Source: Escherichia coli (lineage in GTDB: Bacteria; Pseudomonadota; Gammaproteobacteria; Enterobacterales; Enterobacteriaceae). From it: DNA of 64,000 nucleotides. A program made the position numbers and the translations under genes. Within the stretch, counting starts at the first letter, position 1, and every line of letters begins with the position of its first letter. Location: NCBI RefSeq assembly GCF_044324785.1, contig NZ_CP172127.1; one strand, written 5' to 3'. The notes beneath the pieces are model-generated. The model was not told where the DNA came from, made no database searches, and saw nothing but the letters and a program-made list of their open reading frames with translations. Below are positions 50,165 through 50,463 of this stretch, piece by piece.

Positions 50165-50240
50165 TGGAGCGGGAAACGAGACTCGAACTCGCGACCCCGA
50201 CCTTGGCAAGGTCGTGCTCTACCAACTGAGCTATTCCCGC
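50165..50240 (-). tRNA. glyY: tRNA-Gly (GCC)
   Basis: 76-nt exact reverse complement of E. coli tRNA-Gly(GCC) with encoded CCA; first of three tandem copies (gene order glyV/X/Y assigned by position). Confidence 0.95.
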
Positions 50241-50276
50241 TTGGGTGGTCTGTGCTTTGCAGCACTTTTCAAATTT

Positions 50277-50352
50277 TGGAGCGGGAAACGAGACTCGAAC
50301 TCGCGACCCCGACCTTGGCAAGGTCGTGCTCTACCAACTGAGCTATTCCCGC
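50277..50352 (-). tRNA. glyX: tRNA-Gly (GCC)
   Basis: Identical 76-nt copy, 36-nt spacer. Confidence 0.95.
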
Positions 50353-50387
50353 TTGGGTGGTCTGTGCTTTTCAGCACTTTCAAATTT

Positions 50388-50463
50388 TGGAGCGGGAAAC
50401 GAGACTCGAACTCGCGACCCCGACCTTGGCAAGGTCGTGCTCTACCAACTGAGCTATTCCCGC
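50388..50463 (-). tRNA. glyV: tRNA-Gly (GCC)
   Basis: Identical 76-nt copy, 35-nt spacer. Confidence 0.95.

Follow-up and report, generated by a model that had tools for sequence, protein, structure and literature searches.

Introduction

The glyV-glyX-glyY (glyVXY) operon of Escherichia coli has been known for decades, and its tandem identical copies are a textbook case of tRNA gene dosage. In K-12, the operon lies at about 94.7 min, upstream of datA. The 5′ ends of maturing tRNAs are made by RNase P and the 3′ ends are trimmed by exonucleases. Four identical GCC genes, i.e., glyV, glyX, glyY, and glyW, are found in E. coli and decode GGC and GGU, and the deletion of glyV and glyX reduces the translation of reporters rich in these codons (PMC7461829). 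In K-12, glyV-glyX-glyY is made as one precursor, which RNase E attacks by direct entry and cuts in single-stranded A/U-rich segments, with a major in-vitro site 1 nt past the 3′ end of glyY (PMC4191395, PMC9841416). Cleavage after glyY requires the single-stranded spacer upstream of glyY (PMC4191395) and the adjoining glyX tRNA (PMC9841416). The array has also been cited as an example of tandem duplication (PMC4539685), and structural variants near the operon have been reported under ciprofloxacin stress (PMC8811037).

[quoted passage not shown] Kasho et al. (2024) placed datA directly downstream of glyV-X-Y in K-12, where the terminator of the operon overlaps DnaA box 1 and works as an attenuator, and where the release of IHF in good time requires transcription that starts at the operon promoter and reads through the IHF site (PMC10950094). 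Deletion of the promoter, or insertion of a strong terminator after glyY, lowers the initiation frequency; the displacement of IHF by read-through and its effect on initiation timing have been shown in K-12 derivatives only (PMC10950094).

In this report, an array of three tRNA genes at 50165-50463 is analyzed within a 64-kb stretch of DNA, hereafter the window. With a probability of about 0.97, the array is read as the glyV-glyX-glyY operon of the chromosome, in which three identical genes encode tRNA-Gly(GCC), the isoacceptor for the common codons GGC and GGU. The operon is real, ordinary, and previously described, and nothing about it is new in kind.

Identity and Chromosomal Setting of the Three Genes

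ARAGORN, run over the whole window, called three tRNA-Gly(GCC) genes and no further tRNA. The genes occupy 50165-50240, 50277-50352, and 50388-50463 of the minus strand and, in the order in which they are transcribed, are the promoter-proximal glyV (50463-50388), the middle copy glyX (50352-50277), and the distal copy glyY (50240-50165). Each copy matched the full Rfam tRNA model (RF00005, positions 1-71) and reached 69.1 bits, where the gathering score is 29, and a scan of 49000-51500 gave no Rfam match except these three. Elsewhere in the window, the only other Rfam match was an RpsF leader (RF02893, 110 bits) at 17802-17886 on the minus strand, upstream of the rpsF-priB-rpsR-rplI operon. 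In every copy, ARAGORN placed the anticodon gcc at position 34, i.e., GCC at 34-36, and the 76-nt sequence is the same throughout, an identity that cannot have arisen by chance. The spacers, 36 nt (50241-50276) and 35 nt (50353-50387) in length, are distinguished by a 1-nt indel and a single substitution, and Tandem Repeats Finder reported an array at 50163-50463 with a period of 112, 2.7 copies, 98% matches, and a score of 588. The preliminary description of this DNA had claimed three perfect 76-nt tRNA-Gly(GCC) copies, near-identical spacers of 36 and 35 nt, and a repeat unit of approximately 112 bp; its coordinates proved exact, and all three claims hold. It was right on the repeats, but it gave neither the minus strand, nor the name glyV-glyX-glyY, nor the role of read-through at the adjoining datA (PMC10950094).

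Read directly, the acceptor end GCGGGAA...TTCCCGC-T-CCA contains the glycine identity elements and an encoded CCA. Glycine identity is carried by G1:C72, C2:G71, and G3:C70 together with the discriminator U73. The K-12 locus contains three exact copies of nucleotides 1-73 of the 76-nt gene, and the K-12 spacer after each copy starts where the window spacers start, which implies the same CCA ends. The identical K-12 genes are expressed (PMC7461829); the window copies would be expressed and charged with glycine.

The gene order of the window is that annotated in K-12, which reads, in the orientation of the window, tsaE, nnr, queG, yjeV, three tRNA-Gly genes, orn, rsgA, psd, and mscM; in the annotation of K-12 and six other genomes, the array lies between orn and queG/yjeV. 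The oligoribonuclease gene orn, upstream of the operon, was mapped from the K-12 annotation to 50674-51219 (minus strand). Its placement by tblastn, in which the last 182 residues of the window reading frame were compared with the window, is a 100% self-match that fixes the position only, and a cross-check gave a 100% match to the annotated orn of K-12. The epoxyqueuosine reductase gene queG (48756-49895, plus strand) is convergent with the tRNA operon and was located by the K-12 annotation and by tblastn, the latter likewise a self-match fixing position only. The 17-codon open reading frame yjeV (MRFYFYSQAVDESGVTR, 49878-49931, minus strand) overlaps the 3′ end of queG and carries the annotation WP_010723271.1 in all of the E. 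coli records that were inspected; two DnaA-box-like sequences are included in it.

A 1.1-kb query centered on the array found matches in 5425 of 5426 complete E. coli genomes, and orn, tRNA-Gly, and queG were annotated beneath them. In E. coli OHT76-1 (NZ_CP135244.1), the query matched only one tRNA-Gly gene, located at another place on the chromosome and probably glyW, and the orn and queG flanks were unmatched, which points either to a deletion taking in orn, a normally essential gene, or to an assembly gap. When the window was compared with the same 5426 genomes, the best identity was 98.0% over 1-20000 (next best 97.1%) and 98.7% over 40000-60000. The window is unusually distant from all of them, and its source would seem to be a divergent lineage of Escherichia represented by few complete genomes.

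Transcription and Processing of the Operon

The operon is set apart from orn by a terminator-like hairpin (CGCCGTAATCCACTTGCGGCG followed by a T-run) found by a terminator scan at 50632-50652 on the minus strand, and in K-12, transcription of orn mostly stops before PglyV-X-Y according to RT-qPCR (PMC10950094). Approximately 60 nt upstream of glyV, a promoter core can be read from the sequence of the minus strand. It comprises the -35 hexamer TTGCAG (50543-50548), a gap of 16 nt, the -10 hexamer TATAAT (50521-50526), and the G+C-rich discriminator GCGCCTCC (50513-50520), and is preceded by an A/T-rich tract (50556-50581) that may act as an UP element. The -35 hexamer is conserved as (C/G)TTGC(A/G) in the Enterobacterales and Aeromonas loci, and TCTCGTATAATGCGC is near-invariant over approximately 70 loci from Escherichia to Providencia, the Aeromonas variant being TTATAAT. 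Likewise, TCTCGTATAATGCGCCTCCCGT with the upstream TTGC(A/G) is near-invariant in Escherichia, Enterobacter, Citrobacter, Pantoea, Erwinia, Providencia, and Morganella, and recognizable in Aeromonas. A rule-based scan called no promoter near the operon, because the -35 hexamer matches the consensus at only three of six bases; the assignment is based on direct reading of the sequence and on conservation in the approximately 70 loci. Stable-RNA promoters under stringent control usually have a perfect -10 hexamer followed by a G+C-rich discriminator, and the glyVXY promoter is, from this form, probably under stringent control. From the position of the promoter, the 5′ leader of the primary transcript would extend over 50464-50512 (minus strand), with an approximate start, and a weak hairpin is predicted within it.

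Downstream of glyY, an operon terminator or attenuator (T-glyVXY; 50106-50142, minus strand) is predicted, consisting of a hairpin at 50142-50115 and the U-run UUUUUGUUG. The fold has an energy of -15 kcal/mol and is modestly better than that of shuffled sequence (z = -1.8). The predicted terminator overlaps DnaA box 1 (ATATCCACA), which matches the published description, and experiments in K-12 support a single operon promoter (PMC10950094).

The 35-nt glyV-glyX spacer (50353-50387) and the 36-nt glyX-glyY spacer (50241-50276), the latter identical to the glyV-glyX spacer of K-12, are built alike. Each starts with the A/U-rich AAAUUUGAAA, predicted to be single-stranded in the glyV-glyX spacer, continues into a predicted 5-bp hairpin (50377-50364 and 50265-50252, respectively), and ends with ACCACCCAA; the predicted energy is -7.2 kcal/mol in each case, with z = -3.5 for the former and -2.2 for the latter. 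A fold of the whole 415-nt precursor, in which different tRNA copies paired with one another, was rejected as an artefact of global energy minimization on repeated sequence.

Hairpins of 4-6 bp were also predicted at the same place, with different stems (e.g., GUGCU/AGCAC, GUGUC/GACAC, GUAUC/GAUAC, UGGCU/AGCCA, and GGCC/GGCC), among 24 Enterobacteriaceae spacers that were picked by eye for likeness and folded one by one, the MAFFT alignment being out of structural register. The mid-spacer pairing is kept across several genera of Enterobacteriaceae (nine loci), and in two genomes, the two spacers of the same array differ by a change from A-U to G-C at the closing pair of the hairpin. In genera with short spacers of 23-28 nt (Pantoea and Pluralibacter), the hairpin is absent. 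These folds suggest a conserved spacer hairpin, which is treated here as a lead and not as a result, and which could be an undescribed signal for processing or attenuation.

Taken together with the background from K-12, the following course may be proposed. The conserved promoter would give a single transcript of the three tRNA-Gly(GCC) genes, the 5′ ends of which would be formed by RNase P, and the 3′ ends trimmed by exonucleases to the encoded CCA. The three copies would serve gene dosage, and their identity would be kept by purifying selection on the tRNA and by unequal crossing-over or gene conversion within the array; the same exchanges would homogenize the spacers and now and then shift the copy number. 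The effects on processing, dosage, and datA were measured in K-12, and the lineage of the window is more divergent, with a best identity of 98.0-98.7% to complete E. coli genomes.

Variation and Evolution of the Array

One variant in E. coli is an insertion of 121 bp in one spacer, found in 1607 of 5426 complete genomes (approximately 30%), where it separates the glyV-glyX spacer from glyX. The two standard ERIC primer sites are joined by its core, GAGCTTACAAAAGTAAGTGACT, and the insertion is thus an ERIC/IRU element; no ERIC core is present anywhere in the 64 kb of the window. Arrays of two copies were found in E. coli GF131, XDL, EC190329, and WB61. Two sets of 60 genomes were sampled at even spacing; they shared some ranks and genomes and covered approximately 118 genomes. 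About two thirds of the sampled genomes had three copies without ERIC, slightly less than 30% carried ERIC, and approximately 3% had two copies; no four-copy array occurred in either set. More than three copies were likewise not seen with a synthetic five-copy query against the E. coli genomes, which is not a census, as overlapping pieces were joined and three-copy genomes also cover 100% of the query. This population comparison puts numbers on a polymorphism that had been suspected, namely an ERIC element in approximately 30% of genomes and the lack of one unit in a few percent, at a place where draft assemblies break. The earlier claim that the array is prone to recombination and variable in copy number between strains is supported by the two-copy arrays of E. 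coli, by the ERIC insertions, by the 2-7 copies found elsewhere, by the concerted evolution of spacers, and by the reversed spacer order of the window, and the comparison across E. coli genomes proposed with it returned two versus three copies.

The order of the spacers also varies. In the direction of transcription, the window has the 35-nt spacer followed by the 36-nt one, whereas K-12 and LF82 have 36 nt followed by 35 nt. The junction of the leader, glyV, and the 35-nt spacer has no exact match among the complete genomes and 87 matches within one difference. The reversed order fits a past unequal exchange or gene conversion; two small mutations are possible instead.

A scan of other species for adjacent tRNA-Gly copies yielded at least 120 stretches. 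Among the matches listed, three copies are the commonest number in the Enterobacterales (range 2-4), whereas Aeromonas arrays contain 5-7, and orn lies upstream of the array, with queG downstream in the Enterobacterales. In 38 three-copy arrays among these matches, the mean identity of spacers within a genome is 86% versus 59% for orthologous spacers, and the former exceeds the latter in each of the 38. As read from these sequences, the spacers are therefore undergoing concerted evolution within each genome, i.e., the ongoing homogenization of an old array.

Two further observations were made in the same scan. The operon has repeatedly acquired ERIC/IRU elements in different genera, and every one of them directly abuts the 5′ end of a tRNA-Gly gene; they lie in spacers at seven loci (at 6190-6311 in L002) and in the leader at five. 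At seven Aeromonas loci, 5-7 tandem tRNA-Gly(GCC) copies are located downstream of orn and are separated by spacers of alternating types, e.g., 36, 35, 36, 35, 25, and 25 nt, and this alternation suggests a duplication of two-gene units.

Alternative Explanations for the Array

The near-identity of copies and spacers is what would be seen just after a duplication, and copy number differs between strains, from which the three copies might be taken for a recent, lineage-specific duplication and not an old conserved operon. This origin is very unlikely, since at least two copies are universally present, most loci of Enterobacteriaceae, Erwiniaceae, and Morganellaceae among the matches listed have three copies in the orn-queG context, and spacers that resemble each other more than their orthologues point to the continuing homogenization of an old array. 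Even less credible is that the length of the array is an artefact of assembly, in which the repeat was collapsed or expanded. Seven draft contigs of other species do end within the array or at its edge, which bears out the caution about collapsed assemblies in the preliminary description, and part of the two-copy arrays of E. coli stem from older assemblies, of which some may be collapsed repeats; however, the two spacers of the window differ, which makes the copies distinguishable, and a three-copy structure of the same length is present in most of the approximately 118 sampled complete genomes.

Mobile elements offer another origin of tandem repeats, as tRNA genes are, in general terms, common sites of integration (PMC8811037), and the copies could then be duplicated attachment sites. 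Against this reading, to which only a vanishingly small probability is given, all copies are full-length and identical, the spacers measure 35-36 nt, the interval from orn to queG contains no integrase, island, or partial tRNA fragments flanking foreign DNA, and the conserved datA follows downstream. Finally, regular repeat spacing and short spacers would be common to the array and to a CRISPR-like or other regulatory repeat array that contains no genes. That interpretation is given no weight, because the repeat is 76 nt long with a full cloverleaf versus 23-55 nt for CRISPR repeats, the spacers are near-identical and not unique, and the neighbors are orn and queG and not cas genes; the preliminary description had already set CRISPR aside on the grounds of the tRNA repeat and the matching spacers, and rightly so. 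The glyV-glyX-glyY operon, as an old array of tRNA genes, is contradicted by none of the observations and remains the reading that is followed below.

The Adjoining datA Site

A cluster of DnaA boxes and one IHF site are present in the window directly downstream of the terminator. Box 1 (ATATCCACA, 50138-50146, minus strand), read from the sequence and numbered as published, overlaps the terminator (PMC10950094). It is followed on the minus strand by TTATCCACA (50071-50079), a perfect consensus DnaA box and box 2 by position, by an IHF-binding site (TAACCTATTGATA, 50002-50014), which is the sole match in the 64-kb window to the consensus TAANNNNTTGATW (PMC10950094), and by a further DnaA box (TTATTCACA, 49909-49917) inside yjeV. 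The DNA directly downstream of the array (49878-50146, minus strand) is datA. The array is thereby useful for annotating the window, as it marks the position of the chromosomal site at which the replication initiator DnaA is inactivated.

Among the matches listed, Enterobacteriaceae and Erwiniaceae share DnaA boxes at approximately +20, +86, and +247 nt past the last tRNA, and DnaA boxes downstream of the array are absent in Aeromonas, Morganellaceae, and Tatumella. The conservation across Enterobacteriaceae and Erwiniaceae indicates that array and datA were coupled before the genus Escherichia arose and that their coupling is independent of copy number. [quoted passage not shown]

Relation to Described Operons

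Other tandem operons of identical tRNA genes in E. coli, such as valV-valW and leuQ-leuP-leuV, are also transcribed as one unit and raise gene dosage, but they encode different tRNAs and occupy different loci from glyVXY, and we know of no link between them and a replication-control site. The Aeromonas arrays share with the window an identical tRNA sequence, orn upstream, and a related promoter core. Unlike the window, they contain 5-7 copies with more varied spacers (22-38 nt), and neither a queG match nor a DnaA-box cluster was found downstream of them.

Within E. coli, the two-copy variants (GF131, XDL, EC190329, and WB61) have the locus and the tRNA sequence of the window minus one 112-bp unit, whereas the window has three units. 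The ERIC-bearing variant, e.g., that of E. coli JCH767, has genes, flanks, and promoter as in the window, but the 121-bp element extends one spacer to 157 nt, and the window is without the element. The last comparison is with the K-12 glyV-glyX-glyY operon itself. The window differs from it in that its 36-nt spacer, equal to the K-12 glyV-glyX spacer, lies between glyX and glyY, and in that the flanking DNA is only approximately 97.5% identical. The two loci agree in the tRNA sequence, which is identical, in the three copies, in the neighbors orn, yjeV, and queG, and in the leader, trailer, promoter core, terminator over DnaA box 1, DnaA boxes, and IHF site.
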